A DNA stretch of 44,504 nucleotides. Origin: a virus (taxonomy: Duplodnaviria > Heunggongvirae > Uroviricota > Caudoviricetes). Where the stretch lies: the IMG/VR virus record IMGVR_UViG_2537561991_000021; one strand, written 5' to 3'. Below are positions 1,388 through 13,439 of the stretch, piece by piece. Within the stretch, counting starts at the first letter, position 1. Every line of letters starts with the position of its first letter. The notes beneath the pieces are model-generated. The model did no database searches. It had not been told where the DNA came from and worked only from the letters and a program-made list of their open reading frames with translations. The position numbers and the translations under genes were made by a program.

Positions 1388-2064
1388 CAGTGGCTGCTCC
1401 CTTTCATTTCGCGGATAAGTGTCTGTAATAACGCCGGCGTCAGTTTACCTTTAAGCCTGAGAGTTCCGGCCGGCAGAATCAGCTCACAACACAGACTGTC
1501 GGACGGTGTATTTATCTGCTCTGGTTCCTGTGCGGGGGCCGGGATTTTATTATCCGGCTCCGGCGTTAACGTCACGGGAAGCAGTACCGGCATATTTTTT
1601 CCGGAAGGCAGCAGGCCACCTTTCCGGTATTGATGGCGCCAGTTGAAGAGCAGGTTATCGTTGATTCCGTTTTCCCGGGCGATCTGCGCCACACAGGCTC
1701 CGGGCTGCAGTGACTGCTCCACTAAGGCGATTTTAAACTCATAAGGGAAGTTGGGCCGCCGGGGACGTTTTTTTATCACGGGGGCTTCGGATATAACGGT
1801 GTTTTCAGGACGTACGACTGGTACCGTGGAAAATTGTCCGTAAAGGCAGGCATCAAGTTCCTGCTCCGACATGCCTGCGGGCAAAGGCCACGAAAGGCCA
1901 GCTCTCCGAAAGCGCACGAACATATTACAAACTGTTGATTTTGGTACACCCAGGCGACGCCCGGCCACAACCCGGGGTAAATGTTCTTCAAAGTGAAGAC
2001 GTAAAGCTTCAGTGATCCAGGTCCGGTGTTTCATACGATAGTGTCCATTAAAAATGATGGACAT
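1387..2064 (-). CDS. IS66-family orfA-like protein with N-terminal HTH
   Basis: 225 aa, about 97% identical to 32995..33672. C-terminal part resembles the short IS66 orfA at 32175..32576 (GINxNLLFxWR). Confidence 0.8.
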   Translation of the reverse strand: MSIIFNGHYRMKHRTWITEALRLHFEEHLPRVVAGRRLGVPKSTVCNMFVRFRRAGLSWPLPAGMSEQELDACLYGQFSTVPVVRPENTVISEAPVIKKRPRRPNFPYEFKIALVEQSLQPGACVAQIARENGINDNLLFNWRHQYRKGGLLPSGKNMPVLLPVTLTPEPDNKIPAPAQEPEQINTPSDSLCCELILPAGTLRLKGKLTPALLQTLIREMKGSSH

Positions 2065-2117
2065 TATTTTTGTAGAGCCGGAGGAAACAGACCAGACGGT
2101 TTAAATGAGCCGGTTAC

Positions 2118-2293
2118 GCTTTATATGAGCCAGGAGCATCTAAACAGGAACATGCCGGGATACCGACACCCACAGCAAGATATTCAGTTGATGTGGAAAT
2201 ATATTCCCGTGTCTCACCATCATAATTGTAAACGGTAATGTCTCCCGCCTTTGTGGTGATGAGTTCGCTATTTAATACAGCTTTATTCATCAT
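2118..2293 (-). pseudogene. tail fiber assembly protein (Tfa), N-terminal fragment truncated by IS insertion
   Basis: Start ATG overlaps the tail-fiber stop (ATGA). Encodes [59 protein letters not shown], typical of a Tfa N-terminus, then runs into the IS end. Confidence 0.6.
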
Positions 2294-3135
2294 GCGGCCC
2301 TTACGATATAATTAAAAGCGATGTTACGAGGACGAGTTTCTGTACCTACATTTTCACTAATTTCACCATAACGTTTAACACTACGAGAGCTAATAGCTCG
2401 TAGTGAGGAAGGCACATTAAGACCGGGTTCGTCCGTTTTAACTATTCCCCCGTCACCGTATGTAGCCAGTATTCCTGGGTTTACTCCTTCCCGTGCACTT
2501 CCTGCGGCGAGTCCGTCCCCTGTCCATAATTCCATATAGTGTGCATGGTCCAAAATTGTGTGTGGCTGCCAATTAAGCAAAGCGCGACCAGTATCAATCC
2601 CGCGACCGTCATCCCAGCCACGAATAAATTCACCGCGTAAATCAGGCAATTTATTGGTCGGGTAAGCCTTTGCCAGTTCCGGGTATTCTTCAGCAGAAAA
2701 AGCCGCACCGTTGCATTTCAGCCAGCCTGTTGGCGGTGTGACTGAAGGCCACGGAACAGGCACACCAACAGGTAATGCAGAACCTTCTCCCAAACCAAGG
2801 TTTTCGAGAGCCGTTTGCACAGTGCCATCCGATTTGATATCGCCAAACGGATTCTTGCGGCTCAGGTATTCAACAGCAAACCCCGATCCCAGCAATTCAA
2901 CAAAACCGGGCAGATCACCATTATCAAGCACATCCCGTTGCGTTTTGTCACTTACAAACTGGGCCAGAGCTGCAGCAATAAAGCTGGCCTGTCGAATGGC
3001 TTTGTTCACCTGCGCACTGGATGCTTTCCCTGCTGTAAATCCGGATAAAAGCGCAGGCAACGCTTCCCATTCCTCCTGCGACATAACATTGGCATTTCGA
3101 TCAGTTGCAAACGCTTTAAAGTCATTTTTCGCCAT
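2290..3135 (-). CDS. tail fiber protein
   Basis: Last structural gene before Tfa. Start assigned to the ATG overlapping the upstream stop (TGATG); the ORF track extends it to 3153. Confidence 0.7.
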
Positions 3136-3815
3136 CAGAGTAATACTCCCCATGCTCCTACATCAAAACCACTGATGAATTCGTTATCCATATCAAAACC
3201 AAAAAATTTTGAGCCTTCCGATGGGGTTTCCACCGAAGGAGTTTCAATGCCCCCCGCCCATACCCCGGCGGCTTTTACTGTGAGATACCCCTGTTTAATT
3301 GCCGCAATTAACTCACGCGATACATCTGAAATATCAGTATCAGGAAAGACCCAGACCGATATCGTCATGTCCTGGTTATCGACTATCTGCATTCGCAGCC
3401 CGGATCCTGCTGTTGCCGCGTCAAGAATTGCCGGAAGCGAATCATTCCGTCCGTCCCAGTTATTAATCGCAATCTTCGCTTTAAGGATGACACGATAAGT
3501 TTCATCGCTGAGGTACATGTATCCGGAATCAGGATCGTATGGTCCCTGCCATACACCCTGATCATATCCAAGCCCGTCGGTATCCCAGCTGAAATAAACA
3601 CCTGAGATAGGCTGGCTGACAACACGGCTACGTCCGATCCACAATCCCAGAATGTCAAGTTGCACACCAACCGCAGAGTCAATATCAAATGCAGTAATCA
3701 GCCCTCTGGTGGCCGCCGCAACATCAATAAGCGGCCGGGTCATCAGATCAACATGTGCAAGAAATTTAGGTTTGGTGGCGTGGTAGTTCGTGATTAGTTC
3801 GGTGTATTTGCTCAT
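3135..3815 (-). CDS. baseplate / tail-fiber-proximal protein (P2 gpI / Mu gp48-like)
   Basis: 226 aa, between the J-like baseplate gene and the tail fiber; ATGA overlap with the upstream stop. Confidence 0.6.
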
Positions 3816-8634: not shown

Positions 8635-9221
8635 TAGCCGCCCCCCAGTAATGACGCCACGTTACCCGTGATGCTTTTCAGCAGTGAAGTATCTGGAGGC
8701 TTGGTGGTTTTGTTGCCGCTGTTCTGTACCGCCGACGTGCTGGCCCCTTCCTTCATGTTGGTTTTATCCGCGACGGAAATCTGCTGTGTCCGGGAGATAA
8801 GGACCTCCCTCAGGGTGAGGACGGCGGACAGGACGTTTTCGGTTGTCTTGTCCGTCGTCACTTCCAGCGCCCGGATCAACATGTTGCTGTACAGTCGTTT
8901 ACCGGTTACCACATCGAAGGGGATACGGCTTTCCTGCAGATCCAGTAGCTCCTGATACGTCTGCTGAGGACTCAGGCCGAGCAGGCTGGTAGCCGTCAGG
9001 TTACTGGCAAAATCCAGCAATGCGCCACCACCGGCGAAACCAACCTCCATCACCACTTCTGACGGTTTTTTATAGGCATGATCAGCGACAGCGGCCCCGA
9101 CCTCTACCGGATGCTCTGTTATTTCAAGCATATCTGTATGCTTCTCTGAAATAACAACACAGGGAACAATCATTCCTATTTTTCTGCTCTGCTGATGAAA
9201 AAGTGTAGAGAGAATATCCAC
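8634..9221 (-). CDS. tail protein following the tape measure
   Basis: 195 aa; probable GTG start overlapping the tape-measure stop. Confidence 0.5.
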   Translation of the reverse strand: MDILSTLFHQQSRKIGMIVPCVVISEKHTDMLEITEHPVEVGAAVADHAYKKPSEVVMEVGFAGGGALLDFASNLTATSLLGLSPQQTYQELLDLQESRIPFDVVTGKRLYSNMLIRALEVTTDKTTENVLSAVLTLREVLISRTQQISVADKTNMKEGASTSAVQNSGNKTTKPPDTSLLKSITGNVASLLGGG

Positions 9222-11209
9222 TAACCCACCCTCACCTGATTACTTCGCATGACCTGAGCATTTGCAGACTGTTGCCGACGTGCAACCTCATTACCGACAG
9301 CGTGCGGATCTCCACCACCGTAAATGTGGTAGGTATTTTGCTGGTTAACCTCTGTCACTTTGCCACTAATTCCCGCCACGGCAGCCTTATTAATCAGCTC
9401 CCGAGAATAGATATTTCTTCCATTCTCATGCTGGATAATGCTGCTCATCAATGCTGACATGGTTTGCGGATCGCTCATATTCAGGGCAGCCCGGGGATCC
9501 ACTCCCAGTCGTTGCGATACAGCCCTGATATACGCAGTTGTGTTGTTATTATCAGACGCAGGTGCCCAGGTAGAGATAATTTTCTCCACACTGTTTATTC
9601 CCCGTCCGGCGTACAGCATTAACTGACGAGCAAGAGCCCGTAATCCATCAAAAGCAGTTTCAAATCTGGCAAATCGCCCGCCCGGGCGTTCAAGAGAAGC
9701 CCCTGCCTGACCAGCAAAATTAAGGTTTCCCGGATTGTTATTCCGTTCTCCTCGTTTCGTAGCCTGTGCATGTTGTTCCGGCTCATCATCACCAAACCAG
9801 CCGCGTACCGTCCGGCCCACACTGCGGGGATCGAATCCCCAGTGCTCTTTAATCCAGTCGGCAGTACTGTTAGCGCTGTCTGTAACCATCGGCATCGCTG
9901 ACGGATTTTCGCTGCCCTGATTAAGTATCTGTTTGCCGATGCTGACGGCATCAGCCCAGCGGCCATCTTTGATAGCGTTGAGCAGGTCGGCGATCATGTT
10001 CAGCATTTTGCTGAATTCGCCCATCTGGTCGATGAAGTTGCTGAAATCCCACTTCAGGGACCATGATTTGGGGTCAATATTGAGCAGTTTCGCCAGCGCT
10101 TTCACCAGGTCGTTAACGGTCGTTTTAAGGTCACGAACCATCTTCAGCGCGGCATCGACCTCCGGTTTCCACTTGCCCCAGTCAATCAGGCTGTCGCCGC
10201 CTTCCTTCCAGGTCTGATAGTCCTCCCACAGGAGGGCAATACCCGCCGCCAGCGCGGTAATGAGGCCAATCGGCGACATCCAGAACGTACTGTTCAGAAT
10301 GCGCAGCGCAATCGTCAGTGCGCCAAACAGCGAGATCAACTCCCGCGTTTGCTTATCCAGCGATTGCCACCAGGTGATAAGGCCTGATGTCCCCTCAATC
10401 AGTCTGAAGAACAGCCGCCCGATAATATCCCCGAGCGCCAGAATGCCTTTTATGGCTTTCGTCAGGGTCTGCTCGATACGAGGGAAGTTGTCCAGGATAT
10501 GGCGGCGCAGGGTGTCCAGCGAACCCGCAAGCCCCCCCGCAAGATTAGAGCCGATTTTGTCACGGGCCATGCCTGCCATCGCGCCAAACTCACGCAGGGA
10601 GGTCATAAATTTGTTGGAGCTTCTGGCCGCCTCGTCAGCATTGAAGCCGATAGCTTTCGCCATTGCGCTGTACTGCCCGGAGAAGCCACCCACACCCCGG
10701 CGCATCGCCATAAGGGTATTTTCGTCAATGCCCAGCATCTGCGCATACTGGTTAGCCCGGTAATACGGCATGCTGCTGAGTTTCTGTCCAACGCCCGTAA
10801 AAATAGCGGCCATGTCACGCATGTTACCGCTGGCATCACGGGTCTGTACGCCCAGGCGATTCAGAAAGCCTTCTGCACCGGGATTGTTACGAATAAACCG
10901 GGATAGGCTTTCCAGAGAAGATCGCGCAGCGTCCACGCTGCCGCCAACCTGCGAAACCGCATAGCCAATAGACTGAATTCCCTGGACTGTCGCGCCGGTG
11001 CGCTGTGACGCCCAGTAAAGATTATCCAGGCCGGAGGCGATCTTAGCCGTGAAGGCCACCACGGACAACGCAGCTCCTTCAACAGCCAGCCCCATTTTGA
11101 TGACATTTGCAGTTGTACCGGCGAGGACAGAACCGAACTTTTTCGCTCCTGCATCATCCACACTGAAGCCAAGCGAGACGAGGAAATCTTTAATAGTTTC
11201 AGCGTTCAT
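9221..11209 (-). CDS. tail tape measure protein
   Basis: About 660 aa, Ala/Gly-rich with predicted helical regions, downstream of the chaperone. ATG at 11209 with a GGAGAGAGG RBS. Confidence 0.85.
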   Translation of the reverse strand: MNAETIKDFLVSLGFSVDDAGAKKFGSVLAGTTANVIKMGLAVEGAALSVVAFTAKIASGLDNLYWASQRTGATVQGIQSIGYAVSQVGGSVDAARSSLESLSRFIRNNPGAEGFLNRLGVQTRDASGNMRDMAAIFTGVGQKLSSMPYYRANQYAQMLGIDENTLMAMRRGVGGFSGQYSAMAKAIGFNADEAARSSNKFMTSLREFGAMAGMARDKIGSNLAGGLAGSLDTLRRHILDNFPRIEQTLTKAIKGILALGDIIGRLFFRLIEGTSGLITWWQSLDKQTRELISLFGALTIALRILNSTFWMSPIGLITALAAGIALLWEDYQTWKEGGDSLIDWGKWKPEVDAALKMVRDLKTTVNDLVKALAKLLNIDPKSWSLKWDFSNFIDQMGEFSKMLNMIADLLNAIKDGRWADAVSIGKQILNQGSENPSAMPMVTDSANSTADWIKEHWGFDPRSVGRTVRGWFGDDEPEQHAQATKRGERNNNPGNLNFAGQAGASLERPGGRFARFETAFDGLRALARQLMLYAGRGINSVEKIISTWAPASDNNNTTAYIRAVSQRLGVDPRAALNMSDPQTMSALMSSIIQHENGRNIYSRELINKAAVAGISGKVTEVNQQNTYHIYGGGDPHAVGNEVARRQQSANAQVMRSNQVRVG

Positions 11210-11386
11210 TATCCTCTCTCCATTTCTCAATGCGTCGCTGGTTATCCGCTTTTACCGCCAGATGGTCATTCAAGAGAGCAATGTCATACAAATCGACAGA
11301 GCCATCTTTAAGTGCTGTATAAGGAATTAACCCGGCGTCAACCGGATTGAGAAGGTAGGACAGCCCGTCCGGCAGGCTGTTAAACG

Positions 11387-11839
11387 TCAGCCCTGTTGCA
11401 GGCTCTGCGTCGTGCTGGTAAGGGGTGTAGGCAAAAAATTTCCCAGCGAATCGGCGACCACCCGCGCCACCAGCTGCAGCATGACCAGCAAGTCAATATC
11501 ATCAAACATCAGTTCGCCCTGGGTAAATACCGGCACCCATCCGTCCATATGACGCCGCGATACCACCGCAAGACAGGGATGAATAATCGCATCGGTGTCA
11601 TCTTCGGTCAGGGAAGACAGTTCCTCAGCGATACGCGGGAGCATGGTTTCAAACACCGGTTTTAACTGTTCGAATTTCACGGTGTCGATTTTGCCGTCAG
11701 CAGGCAAACGGGAGCGAATACTCCCGAAATCTGACATCATTCCTGCCAGCACCGGCAGAAGTTTGCGGGTCACTTTCAGCTGGTCAAAAACGCTGAGTTT
11801 TGCCGTGCGATATTTCACGCCTTTAATTTCGAATTCCAT
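11387..11839 (-). CDS. tail assembly chaperone (zero-frame product)
   Basis: 150 aa between the tube and tape-measure genes; followed by an open -1 frame (see findings). Confidence 0.75.
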   Translation of the reverse strand: MEFEIKGVKYRTAKLSVFDQLKVTRKLLPVLAGMMSDFGSIRSRLPADGKIDTVKFEQLKPVFETMLPRIAEELSSLTEDDTDAIIHPCLAVVSRRHMDGWVPVFTQGELMFDDIDLLVMLQLVARVVADSLGNFLPTPLTSTTQSLQQG

Positions 11840-11842
11840 GCA

Positions 11843-12283
11843 TTAAAACTCCCCGAGAACCTGGTCAATCTTGCCGCAGTCAAACACCCACGGCATCGTA
11901 TTACCGGTTTTAGCGTTGGCGTTATCCGGTTGTTTCTGGAACGCAACACTGCGTGCCGTGATGATGTCGCCGCTGACCTTGTTGCGGATCACGATAACGT
12001 TATTCCCCCATGTGGCAGAAGACTGGCTCTGTGCGTTATACGCCAGCGACAATTTTTTATTTGTCGGTGATGTCTTCAGAAGGTTAACGGTAATCGTCCC
12101 GCTTTTATCTGCATGGAGACTGTGCATCACTTCGCCATCAGCACCGATGGTCATGGTGTTTTTAGGACCGCCCATCGCAACCACAATCCCCTCTTCAGAA
12201 CTTGCCGAACCGTACCCGAGGTCAATCGAACCTGTCGGCCCGGTCAGCGTCGCAGTGACATCCATAAAAGAATAGGTAGACAT
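11843..12283 (-). CDS. tail tube protein
   Basis: 146 aa immediately downstream of the sheath gene. Confidence 0.7.
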   Translation of the reverse strand: MSTYSFMDVTATLTGPTGSIDLGYGSASSEEGIVVAMGGPKNTMTIGADGEVMHSLHADKSGTITVNLLKTSPTNKKLSLAYNAQSQSSATWGNNVIVIRNKVSGDIITARSVAFQKQPDNANAKTGNTMPWVFDCGKIDQVLGEF

Positions 12284-12293
12284 TCACTTCCCC

Positions 12294-13439
12294 TTAGCGA
12301 ACAACGTTAATCTGTACGTCAGCGTAATGAACCGCGCCTGCAAGTTTTATTGCAGCCTGAATCACCGGAGCCTTACGGGCTTCACGTTCTGATTGAGCCT
12401 GTTCATCCAGCGGCTGAGCGTATACGTAATAACCTTTGGGCAGTGTGTCACCTGATGACAACTGACCAAGGTCGCCCCCGTTCCATACGCCCGGAGCAAT
12501 CAGTCCATTCTGAACGGCCTGATCCAGTGATTTTTCAACATTTGATAACAGTCGGGTAATACCGGCTTCAGTCTGGGGAACTTTCGTGGTGCTGGTATAA
12601 AGCAGGTTATAGAGGTTGGTCTGCACATAATTCTGTAACCAGTCCAGGCCGTGGCGTTCATCAAAGAAATCGCCGTTAGCCATCACTCCCTGCTGGAGGA
12701 TAGCCGTATCATTCTGGTAGTACACGAATACATTGCAGTTTTTTGCATCAAGTGCCGATGCCTGGCTGACTGTCAGTGTTTCATACCCGATACCCGGCTC
12801 CTGCTTAAACTTGAGCGTAATCGCGGTATTACTGCCATTGAAATTAACCGTGAATGCCCGGCCAAATGCAGATAACGCAGCGTATTTATTACCCGATGAA
12901 TACTGAATAAAACTGCGTGAATATCCGGCGGTTTTCAGTTTTGATGCCAAATCATCGCTGGATGCAGTCTGCAGGCATTTCTCATCGCTTGTCGTAATCG
13001 CCAGAATACGGCTTACAGAAGAGGATTCGATCGCCGCAGCCACTTTCAGCCAGTCTGCATCCTGAATATCTTCATCGTCTGCAATCCCCAGCCCATACCA
13101 TGAAGTATAATCAAGCATGGCATTCACAGCCTGCTCCAGCGTCTCAGGCGTGGCCTGTTCGCTGTCTCCCTTCGTTTTCACCCAACGACCAACAAAAACC
13201 TCCTGAGGTTTCGGTGATTGAGAGAAAAACACCTGCGCAGCCTTATATTCTGGTGATTCCACGCCAAAATCTTTTCCAATATCTTCCGCGGCAGAATAAC
13301 GGCGAATGCGCTCACTTACCGGAATGATTGTGGACGGGCCGAGAATGAGTAATGCACCAAAATTTCGCCCTGATGCTGCACGCGGCGACATGATCACATC
13401 AACATTAACAACGTTTGATACAGGCAAGCCCTGTGCCAT
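12294..13439 (-). CDS. contractile tail sheath protein
   Basis: 381 aa upstream of the tube/chaperone/tape-measure set. Confidence 0.7.

Follow-up and report, generated by a model that had tools for sequence, protein, structure and literature searches.

The locus between the tail tube and tape-measure genes of the 44,504-nucleotide stretch of DNA analyzed here (the window; IMG/VR record IMGVR_UViG_2537561991_000021) very probably encodes a tail assembly chaperone pair of the G/GT type, in which the longer protein arises by a programmed -1 frameshift near the end of the chaperone gene. The source phage is a temperate Escherichia coli myovirus, present here as a prophage. Direct support for this reading comes from the geometry of the open reading frames (ORFs), the identities of the two domains, the lack of an independent start for the second one, selection on the slip site, a switch of coding constraint at that site, and natural in-frame fusions of the two domains. 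That the tail chaperone genes of long-tailed phages commonly use a conserved -1 frameshift has stood in textbooks since 2004. The definition of the G/GT-type pair is said to come from Xu, Hendrix and Duda in that year; it also calls for two proteins at a fixed ratio, both needed for tail assembly and both absent from the virion.

On the minus strand, the genes follow in the order tail sheath, tail tube, chaperone, and tape measure (Table 1), with the chaperone locus lying between the tube and tape-measure genes. Homologs of the tape-measure protein carry annotations such as tail length tape measure or SLT-domain protein, and its ATG is preceded by GGAGAGAGGATA. Translation of the ORF at 11839..11387 gave a 150-aa chaperone ending in ...VVADSLGNFLPTPLTSTTQSLQQG, which confirmed the gene end at 11387 given in the original prediction. 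The T-TTT-TTG heptamer proposed there as the slip site on the minus strand proved exact to the base (TTTTTTG at 11438..11432) and lies in register with the chaperone frame, AA[T TTT TTG]. Read from the last base of the heptamer, the G at 11432, the -1 frame encodes 77 residues (AYTPYQHDAEPATGLTFNSLPDGLSYLLNPVDAGLIPYTALKDGSVDLYDIALLNDHLAVKADNQRRIEKWREDNER), where about 78 had been predicted, and closes with a TGA at 11201..11199, so that, as also foreseen, it runs over the tape-measure start, sharing 11 nt with the tape-measure ORF. The predicted long product comprises 213 aa (136 + 77) versus 150 aa for the short one. Upstream, the -1 frame is open already from 11492, 18 codons 5' of the heptamer, and the latter is the last of three overlapping heptamers in the slip region (GGGAAAT at 11444..11438, AAATTTT at 11441..11435, and TTTTTTG).

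The extension has no evident start or ribosome binding site of its own. Its first ATG, GTG, or TTG in the window is codon 49, located within the DUF6889 domain, and a canonical start ahead of this domain occurs in only 17 of 68 distinct loci, only one of which carries a Shine-Dalgarno-like (SD-like) sequence. On this evidence, independent initiation of the extension was rejected.

Table 1. Features of the chaperone locus and its neighbors in the window
Feature	Position	Strand	Basis
Tail sheath gene	12294..13439	-	Pfam DUF3383, E=1e-100; "tail sheath" in the annotation of Salmonella phage SEN34
Tail tube gene, directly upstream of the chaperone	11843..12283	-	Pfam KPP10_Orf10 (= DUF3277 / Phage_Tube_PhiTE), E=8.8e-61
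Short (G-like) tail assembly chaperone, 150 aa, stop TGA 11389..11387	11387..11839	-	ORF list, Pfam, PHROG
Slip region G-GGA-AAT-TTT-TTG, 13 nt, three in-register X-XXY-YYZ heptamers	11432..11444	-	Conserved among relatives
T-TTT-TTG heptamer, minimal conserved shift site; P-site Phe TTT, A-site Leu TTG	11432..11438	-	
-1 extension, 77 codons + TGA 11201..11199 (linker, then T-like domain)	11199..11432	-	
DUF6889 (PF21829) match, conserved core of the T-like domain	11208..11324	-	Pfam, PHROG
RefSeq stand-alone "DUF6889 family protein" model, CTG start	11199..11363	-	NZ_CP027388 annotation mapped to the window
Tape-measure gene, ATG 11209..11207	9221..11209	-	ORF list; weak PhageMin_Tail match

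Both parts of the predicted long product belong to known families, with the Pfam gathering thresholds exceeded in each case. The chaperone matches Phage_TAC_15 (PF21822; E=4.9e-31, 108.3 bits against a cutoff of 22, profile positions 1-122 of 127) and PHROG 1688, "tail assembly chaperone" (E=3.6e-65), which, together with the gene order, bears out the identity and the position upstream of the tape-measure gene that had been read from the DNA at the outset. The -1 translation matches DUF6889 (PF21829; E=1.2e-20, 73.4 bits against a cutoff of 23.9, profile positions 2-40 of 40) and PHROG 4364, "unknown function" (E=1.9e-23), and judged by these profile matches the extension is a real protein domain. 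In a confident AlphaFold2 (AF2) model, residues 141-153 form a disordered linker and residues 157-213 a helical domain, and the fold matches of the model in BFVD are myovirus tail assembly chaperones, including the tape measure chaperone of phage Moogle. Searches of the PDB returned neither a significant match to the model (Foldseek) nor a sequence relative (phmmer). No family other than Phage_TAC_15 and DUF6889 appeared in the Pfam search at E<=0.1, no model was found in NCBIfam, and the literature search yielded no paper mentioning DUF6889 and none on this chaperone family. In distant relatives (26-32% identity), the chaperone and DUF6889 domains form a single ORF of 191-210 aa, which in three of five contexts directly follows a short Phage_TAC_15 paralog; these natural fusions indicate that the long form is a bona fide protein.

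In the window, it is common for the -1 frame to stay open beyond a stop codon: among the 67 ORFs of 120 aa or more, 29 have a -1 extension of 50 codons or more, usually owing to a following gene that occupies that frame, and the single-sequence observation is therefore weak when taken alone. For the same reason, that neighboring genes often lie in the -1 frame, a within-window null for the open frame was uninformative, and comparative tests were used instead. The contig search for relatives used a four-sequence alignment as query, and the comparisons covered 68 distinct related loci with 44-100% protein identity, 58 species-level loci, and 64 distinct intact segments. The -1 extension measures 62-66 codons in 55 of the 58 species-level loci, and the extension in the +1 frame is typically shorter than 10 codons. 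With one further locus (L105) found intact in this region on re-reading, the number of loci with an unbroken -1 frame rises to 56 of 58; the two broken frames, one with an indel and one with a nonsense codon, come from draft or metagenome-derived (MAG) assemblies. Stop codons in this frame among relatives, named in the original prediction as evidence that would count against it, are thus mostly absent.

Codon-phase analysis of the 68 distinct sequences showed the -1 frame to be under purifying selection that begins at the slip site. In the body of the chaperone gene, mean entropy at frame-0 positions 1/2/3 is 0.79/0.54/1.41, the third position being the most variable. The peak of variability flips to frame-0 position 2, which is position 3 of the -1 frame, in the 10-codon interval holding the motif, and stays there in the 14-codon overlap (0.78/1.33/0.94) and past the chaperone stop (0.57/1.38/0.74). 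The Pfam match of the extension and this comparative evidence lift the single-sequence observation far above chance. Together, a domain lacking its own start, an invariant motif, and a flip of constraint at that motif uphold the G/GT-type frameshift proposed from the letters of the DNA.

The slip site itself is under selection at the nucleotide level, with synonymous variation suppressed. The sequence G-GGA-AAT-TTT-TTG recurs unchanged in each of the 14 diverse phage and prophage loci compared and in most of the 58 species-level loci. Third-position entropy across its codons GGA, AAT, TTT, and TTG is 0.20, 0, 0, and 0.47 bits, compared with 1-1.8 bits in codons upstream, and the codons are retained in 62, 62, 64, and 59 of 64 segments, respectively. 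By comparison, a Phe codon 20 codons upstream varies between TTC (39) and TTT (24). An in-register slippery heptamer is thus conserved within the overlap, and T-TTT-TTN is the sole one found in every intact locus (TTTTTTG in 59, TTTTTTT in three, and TTTTTTC in two of the 64 distinct segments). In two loci (L123 and L145), a -1-frame stop lies immediately next to the T-run and rules out slipping on the upstream heptamers in these loci. The heptamer chosen in the original prediction is the one kept in all intact loci. The conceptual "...FFAY..." peptide fits a slip on either of the two upstream heptamers, whereas a slip on T-TTT-TTG would yield "...FLAY...".

Stimulatory elements were sought around the site with negative results. 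The single-sequence fold downstream was no better than that of shuffled sequences (MFE z = -0.56), RNAalifold on 35 diverse sequences returned no conserved pairs (0), and no AGGAGG-like element that could act as an upstream SD-like stimulator was seen in the window sequence. A downstream stimulatory RNA was rejected on the two null folding results, and the slip site does not fall into the stimulated class represented by dnaX and IS3-type elements. The absence of stimulators agrees with lambda and P2; with none found, slip efficiency would rest on the heptamers alone. The A-site codons UUG and AAU are both of the "heterogeneous" kind, which on average promotes shifting less strongly in E. coli (PMC4066793). 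One tentative and somewhat doubtful possibility is that the A-AAT-TTT-TTG core within G-GGA-AAT-TTT-TTG acts as a compound slip site in which registers overlap and the upstream portion is selected in its own right. The retention of GGA, despite its position outside the T-run, points in this direction, as does the loss of A-AAT-TTT in three lineages, in two of which T-TTT-TTG has changed to the stronger T-TTT-TTT (Fisher p=0.014, with small n and phylogeny ignored). With such a site, no RNA stimulator would be needed to set the G:GT ratio, and there would be two long isoforms, ...GNFF-A... and ...GNFL-A....

Alternatives to a ribosomal shift concern either the way in which the fusion is made or its very existence. 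RNA polymerase might add an extra U at the T6 run, giving an mRNA that encodes the 213-aa protein in one frame with no shift by the ribosome. An extra T does create exactly this fusion, as in one public assembly (L015) in which a one-base insertion makes the run T7 and the same 213-aa protein is read as a single ORF; moreover, what is invariant across loci is a T-run of 6-7 followed by G, C, or T, and the lack of an RNA stimulator would fit this mechanism as well. Productive slippage by bacterial RNA polymerase, however, generally needs about 8-9 or more A/T, and the run is shorter than this both in the window (T6) and in the family (T6-T7). T7 is rare and could reflect a sequencing error: of 80 close IMG/VR loci, 79 have T6, as counted in a search with the single protein that returned only relatives of 94-100% identity. 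The conserved GGA outside the homopolymer is explained by the ribosomal heptamer A-AAT-TTT, but not by the polymerase model, and the identical T6G of P2 is described as a site of translational frameshifting (PMC3091744, PMC3931495). Slippage of the polymerase is accordingly considered quite improbable.

The DUF6889 ORF could also be a gene in its own right, translated from a non-canonical or internal start into a protein of about 54 aa that is never joined to the chaperone. RefSeq indeed lists a 54-aa "DUF6889 family protein", ORFs of 51-59 aa are called in other records, and extension codon 29 is an ATG in some relatives, preceded in some loci by an SD-like sequence. Annotated starts vary among relatives and are not conserved, however; the RefSeq start is a CTG, and in the window no ATG, GTG, or TTG is available before the codon already mentioned. 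Constraint on the -1 frame begins at the slip motif inside the chaperone ORF, more than 20 codons 5' of any annotated start, and in distant relatives the domain is covalently joined to the chaperone domain, which leaves a separate gene very improbable. That the open frame and heptamer are coincidental, and that the 150-aa protein alone is made, might be argued from the frequency of long -1 extensions in the window and from in-register heptamers that occur elsewhere in it by chance too. This explanation is refuted by the Pfam match of the extension (E=1e-20), by a -1 ORF whose presence and length, like the motif, are conserved in relatives with as little as 44% protein identity, and by the purifying selection seen in the codon-phase analysis, and its probability is practically negligible.

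For the preferred reading, we infer a slip made by the ribosome. The majority of ribosomes would stop at 11387 and release the 150-aa chaperone, and a minority would slip back by one base at 11444..11432, with T-TTT-TTG as the minimal site and the overlapping A-AAT-TTT probably assisting. The slipped ribosomes would read the 77 codons of the -1 frame and produce the 213-aa protein, in which the chaperone domain is predicted to be followed by a flexible linker and then by the small helical T-like domain (DUF6889). Translation of this form would terminate just within the tape-measure gene. If the pair works like lambda gpG/gpGT and P2 E/E+E', the tape-measure protein would be covered by both forms and tube subunits would be brought in by the T-like domain, with a fixed slip rate setting the ratio of short to long form.

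The closest functional parallel is P2 E/E+E' (Christie et al., 2002), for which the slip heptamer is TTTTTTG (PMC3091744) and E' overlaps the tape-measure start and has neither a ribosome binding site nor a hairpin (PMC3091744, PMC3931495). The present locus likewise belongs to a myovirus and has the identical T6G, a pair placed between the tube and tape-measure genes, and a -1 ORF that overlaps the tape-measure start without its own ribosome binding site or a downstream hairpin. In contrast to P2, the proteins are larger (150/213 aa versus 91/142 aa), the T6G forms the end of a longer conserved sequence, G-GGA-AAT-TTT-TTG, which holds two more in-register heptamers, and no sequence homology to the P2 proteins is detectable (Pfam, E<=0.1). 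In lambda (Levin, 1993; Xu, Hendrix and Duda, 2004, 2013, 2014), an abundant short chaperone, gpG, is accompanied by a rare -1 fusion, gpGT, whose extra domain is believed to deliver the tail tube protein to the tape measure (PMC5009743). The same logic, with the pair directly upstream of the tape-measure gene, is recognized here from sequence; lambda differs in being a siphovirus and shares no sequence homology, so that the likeness to both the P2 and lambda pairs is one of function and not of sequence family. The lambda slip heptamer is G-GGA-AAG, which the first heptamer here, G-GGA-AAT, resembles, whereas the heptamer kept in all relatives is T-TTT-TTN and not G-GGA-AAN.

True homology is found in Klebsiella phage Mulock (CPT_Mulock_014/015, MN098327), with 67% nucleotide identity, the same gene order, G-GGA-AAT-TTT-TTG, and the same -1 stop. 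Its GenBank record annotates a "tape measure chaperone" and a joined "tape measure chaperone frameshift product", an annotation made by analogy only; the genome announcement neither discusses nor tests it. A similar reinterpretation was made for Pakpunavirus / Andersonviridae in the phage Adele paper, where a downstream "hypothetical protein" became a -1 extension with a conserved poly-T (GTTTTT) slip site, based on an uninterrupted -1 frame in many genomes (PMC12846349). The sheath and tube families of these phages are the same or related (KPP10 / E217-type), but they are lytic jumbo-like myoviruses with another slip-site context.

These findings imply that DUF6889 and PHROG 4364 represent the frameshift-encoded C-terminal domain of Phage_TAC_15 chaperones, and that the separate "DUF6889 family protein" genes listed by RefSeq most likely reflect annotation artefacts. 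Among 5,426 complete E. coli genomes, 368 matched, and the DUF6889 gene is called separately in all 28 of the extension-spanning matches listed, including the CTG-started model in the exact homolog of the window (NZ_CP027388). The value of the result thus lies in curation and not in a new biological principle, since a homolog has already been annotated as a frameshift product. In the distant relatives, frameshifting appears to have been replaced by gene duplication, with tandem short and long genes. The chaperone family would offer a clean comparative case of a stimulator-free compound slip site and may serve as a natural system for how chaperone stoichiometry is encoded.

The contractile-tail module lies on the minus strand of the window (Table), and all coordinates of the original prediction, which had proposed a G/GT-type -1 frameshift in the tail assembly chaperone gene, agreed with the translation and ORF list of the window. 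The 3' part of the chaperone ORF reads ...GCC GAT TCG CTG GGA AAT TTT TTG CCT ACA..., and from the last base of the slip heptamer the -1 frame, open already from 11492, was read for 77 residues (about 78 had been proposed) to a TGA at 11201..11199, 8 nt beyond the tape-measure ATG. In the tape-measure start region (window 11195..11225, minus strand), AAATGGAGAGAGGATAATGAACGCTGA encodes the C-terminus of the extension, ...KWREDNER, and also includes the SD-like GGAGAGAGGA and the tape-measure ATG. These last residues are strongly conserved in Enterobacterales and differ in high-GC in-frame fusions (...KAAEDEAA...); their conservation may be partly due to the overlapping translation-initiation signal. 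Elsewhere (2711..3175, plus strand), a 154-aa ORF has an in-register T-TTA-AAG and a 108-codon -1 extension; since longer ORFs on the minus strand (2290..3153 and 3135..3815) overlap it, it is probably spurious and not a second frameshift site.

Table. Features of the chaperone locus, related loci, and the predicted chaperone-DUF6889 fusion
Feature	Position	Strand	Details
Tail sheath	13439..12294	-	Pfam DUF3383, E=1e-100
Tail tube	12283..11843	-	KPP10_Orf10/DUF3277, E=9e-61
Tail assembly chaperone ORF, 150 aa	11839..11387	-	Pfam Phage_TAC_15, E=4.9e-31; PHROG 1688 'tail assembly chaperone', E=3.6e-65
Slip region G-GGA-AAT-TTT-TTG	11444..11432	-	three overlapping in-register X-XXY-YYZ heptamers, T-TTT-TTG last
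Slip heptamer T-TTT-TTG	11438..11432	-	in register with chaperone frame
RefSeq/PGAP 'DUF6889 family protein', 54 aa	window 11199..11363; L001 (related locus) 2038..2202	-	CTG start
Tape-measure gene, 662 aa	ATG at 11209	-	ORF list
Tandem short/long chaperone genes	L096 108..1238; L158 2499..3630; L159 231..1285		
Fusion, chaperone domain	terminal helix residues 117-136		AlphaFold2; confident; helix ends exactly at slip site
Fusion, linker	residues 141-153		AlphaFold2; disordered, pLDDT below 50
Fusion, T-like domain	residues 157-213		AlphaFold2; three helices

The extension corresponds to Pfam DUF6889 (E=1.2e-20, whole 40-position profile covered) and to PHROG 4364 (E=1.9e-23). The 13-nt motif was identical in all 14 phage or prophage loci of a first set (E. 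coli, Yersinia, Salmonella, Klebsiella, Citrobacter, and Hafnia phages; down to ~66% nucleotide identity), and in each of them the -1 frame was open from the motif until a stop codon that overlaps the start of the tape-measure gene. A second set comprised 58 usable species-representative Enterobacterales loci with 44-86% protein identity (59 returned, one truncated), in which the extension past the frame-0 stop measured 62-66 codons in 55 of 58 and the +1 frame was typically closed within 10 codons. The three exceptions were re-read: L105 carries an indel early in the chaperone, with motif and extension intact, L131 an indel within the T domain, and L148, an Arsenophonus MAG, a nonsense codon in the linker plus a deletion that falls within the extension domain. 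Interruption of the -1 frame by stops, which would speak against the frameshift, was limited to two of the 58 loci, both draft assemblies. Two records with Flavobacteriia labels, OM284015 'Elizabethkingia phage EKP1' and CACSKA010000001 'Chryseobacterium sp. 18061' (L109), contain a tail module of enterobacterial type in which the slip region is the same (~70% nucleotide, 69% amino acid identity); contamination or mislabelling makes the stated host or organism look doubtful.

Nucleotide-level selection was assessed by a survey of motif codons in 64 distinct segments and by phase analysis of the full alignment of 68 distinct sequences. Third-position entropy reached 1-1.8 bits in the 20 codons upstream of the motif, and the motif codons themselves were kept (GGA 62/64, AAT 62/64, TTT 64/64, TTG 59/64); a comparison phenylalanine codon 20 codons upstream was TTC in 39 segments and TTT in 24. 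Mean entropy at frame-0 positions 1/2/3 was 0.79/0.54/1.41 in the chaperone body, 0.00/0.05/0.16 in the 12-nt motif, 0.78/1.33/0.94 in the 14 codons from the motif to the frame-0 stop, and 0.57/1.38/0.74 beyond that stop. Exactly in the sliding window containing the motif, position 3 gave way to position 2, where the -1 frame has its wobble base, as the most variable phase; from the motif onward the sequence therefore evolves as -1-frame coding sequence, even while frame 0 is still open. Such a switch is the signature that would be expected of translation entering the -1 frame at the motif.

G-GGA-AAT has been lost in five loci (L109, L126, L128, L142, L154) through a synonymous change in the preceding leucine codon and, together with A-AAT-TTT, in three others (L123, L125, L145); T-TTT-TTN is retained in every intact locus, making T-TTT-TTG, the heptamer named in the original prediction, the minimal conserved site. 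The T-run alone can serve in L123 and L145, where it is immediately adjoined by a TAG or TAA stop in the -1 frame. GGA, a minor glycine codon, lies outside the T-run, yet it is conserved and provides the first A of A-AAT-TTT. The latter heptamer belongs to the R_RR.U_UU.Y class, found by Sharma et al. to be unexpectedly shift-prone in E. coli, and UUG and AAU are 'heterogeneous' A-site codons, weaker according to the same authors (PMC4066793). T-TTT-TTT replaces T-TTT-TTG in two of the three loci lacking A-AAT-TTT (Fisher p=0.014, for a small sample uncorrected for phylogeny). The pattern hints at a compound slip site. Slippage on T-TTT-TTG predicts the junction ...GNFL-AYTPY... and slippage on either upstream heptamer ...GNFF-AYTPY.... 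As to stimulators, the 115 nt from the motif onward folded no better than shuffled sequences (z = -0.56), RNAalifold predicted zero base pairs in 35 diverse sequences, and the window sequence has no SD-like element upstream of the slip site.

The fusion, used as a query against 1.84 billion representative proteins, recovered distant relatives (191-210 aa, 26-32% identical to it) in which a single ORF carries both Phage_TAC_15 and DUF6889. Of five genomic contexts, three (L096, L158, L159) have a 159-170-aa Phage_TAC_15 paralogue directly ahead of the long gene (191-209 aa), and two (L097, L157) showed the long gene alone. The tandem genes are a two-gene equivalent of G and GT in which frameshifting plays no part, and so offer a gene-duplication alternative to programmed frameshifting in the same family. 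A 98%-identical prophage on a Logan contig (SRR23924998; L015 1895..1910) reads GGGAAATTTTTTTG, with T7 rather than T6, giving an in-frame 213-aa chaperone-DUF6889 fusion (P0001; cluster of 16 member sequences). T6 occurs in 79 of the 80 close IMG/VR loci, which makes T7 a rare variant and a possible error; it could stem from misreading of the homopolymer during sequencing, from a genuine mutation, or from a read derived from cDNA. Three further database proteins (P0128, P0076, P0142) combine parts of the chaperone locus with foreign sequence, such as the last 60 extension residues behind an unrelated N-terminus or the chaperone behind a DUF977 regulator; chimeric assembly or rearrangement of prophage remnants probably accounts for them.

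The open -1 frame of a single sequence is not more than chance would give, since in this compact genome an extension of 50 or more codons in the -1 frame follows 29 of the 67 window ORFs that are 120 aa or longer, usually because that frame is taken by the next gene; the case rests on the other evidence, and a coincidence of frame and heptamer is scarcely credible. Independent initiation of the DUF6889 ORF, itself highly improbable, is contradicted by the codon-phase analysis, by the natural fusions, and by the start-codon survey: the window has no ATG, GTG, or TTG in the extension upstream of the domain, the first being codon 49, within it, and only 17 of 68 distinct related loci have a canonical start ahead of the domain, one of these 17 with an SD-like sequence. 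The RefSeq model of the identical sequence (E. coli 2011C-4251) begins at CTG (window 11363), and start positions vary among annotators from record to record. Judged from sequence, the extension would have no means of separate translation. Transcriptional slippage on T6 is also unlikely, given that the run is short and that conservation of GGA would be left unexplained.

The G/GT-type reading is supported by the DUF6889 domain, the missing start, the conservation of the motif, and the switch of codon phase, and the locus very probably uses stimulator-free programmed -1 ribosomal frameshifting to produce two chaperones, the major one of 150 aa and the minor one of 213 aa. By analogy with lambda gpG/gpGT, the model from which the chaperone roles are inferred (PMC5009743), both forms would bind the tape measure via their shared domain, and the extra domain of the long form would recruit tube subunits. 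As modelled by AlphaFold2 (mean pLDDT 85.7), the fusion falls into three parts (Table). Its Foldseek matches among predicted structures include myovirus tail assembly chaperones, one of them the Citrobacter phage Moogle protein annotated as 'tape measure chaperone'; Foldseek found no solved structure resembling it, and phmmer no sequence relative in the PDB.

The locus has the arrangement of the conserved tail-chaperone frameshift described by Xu, Hendrix and Duda (2004). P2 E/E+E', although unrelated in sequence, is closest in detail, sharing a myovirus context, TTTTTTG, an extension overlapping the tape-measure start, and no RBS or hairpin; the lack of a stimulator here matches the hairpin missing from the P2 slip site (PMC3091744). 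A true homologue in Klebsiella phage Mulock is already annotated with a joined 'tape measure chaperone frameshift product' that terminates at this -1 stop, and for pakpunaviruses, whose tail genes are related, a published study argues in the same way (PMC12846349). In RefSeq E. coli genomes, most GenBank phage records, Pfam, and PHROGs, the extension is either omitted or given as a small protein of its own, with unknown function. The region was matched in 368 of 5,426 complete E. coli genomes in RefSeq, and all 28 extension-spanning matches among those listed carry a separate 'DUF6889 family protein'; other GenBank records have 51-59-aa ORFs with differing starts, one called 'NTP pyrophosphohydrolase', and the PHROG 4364 entry reads 'unknown function'. 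Such free-standing gene models look like artefacts of an unmodelled frameshift. The locus is an unannotated example of a well-known tail-chaperone frameshift, and its main use is annotation correction for DUF6889 and PHROG 4364; of minor curiosity are the possible compound slip site and the occurrence of frameshifting and duplication as alternatives within one chaperone family.
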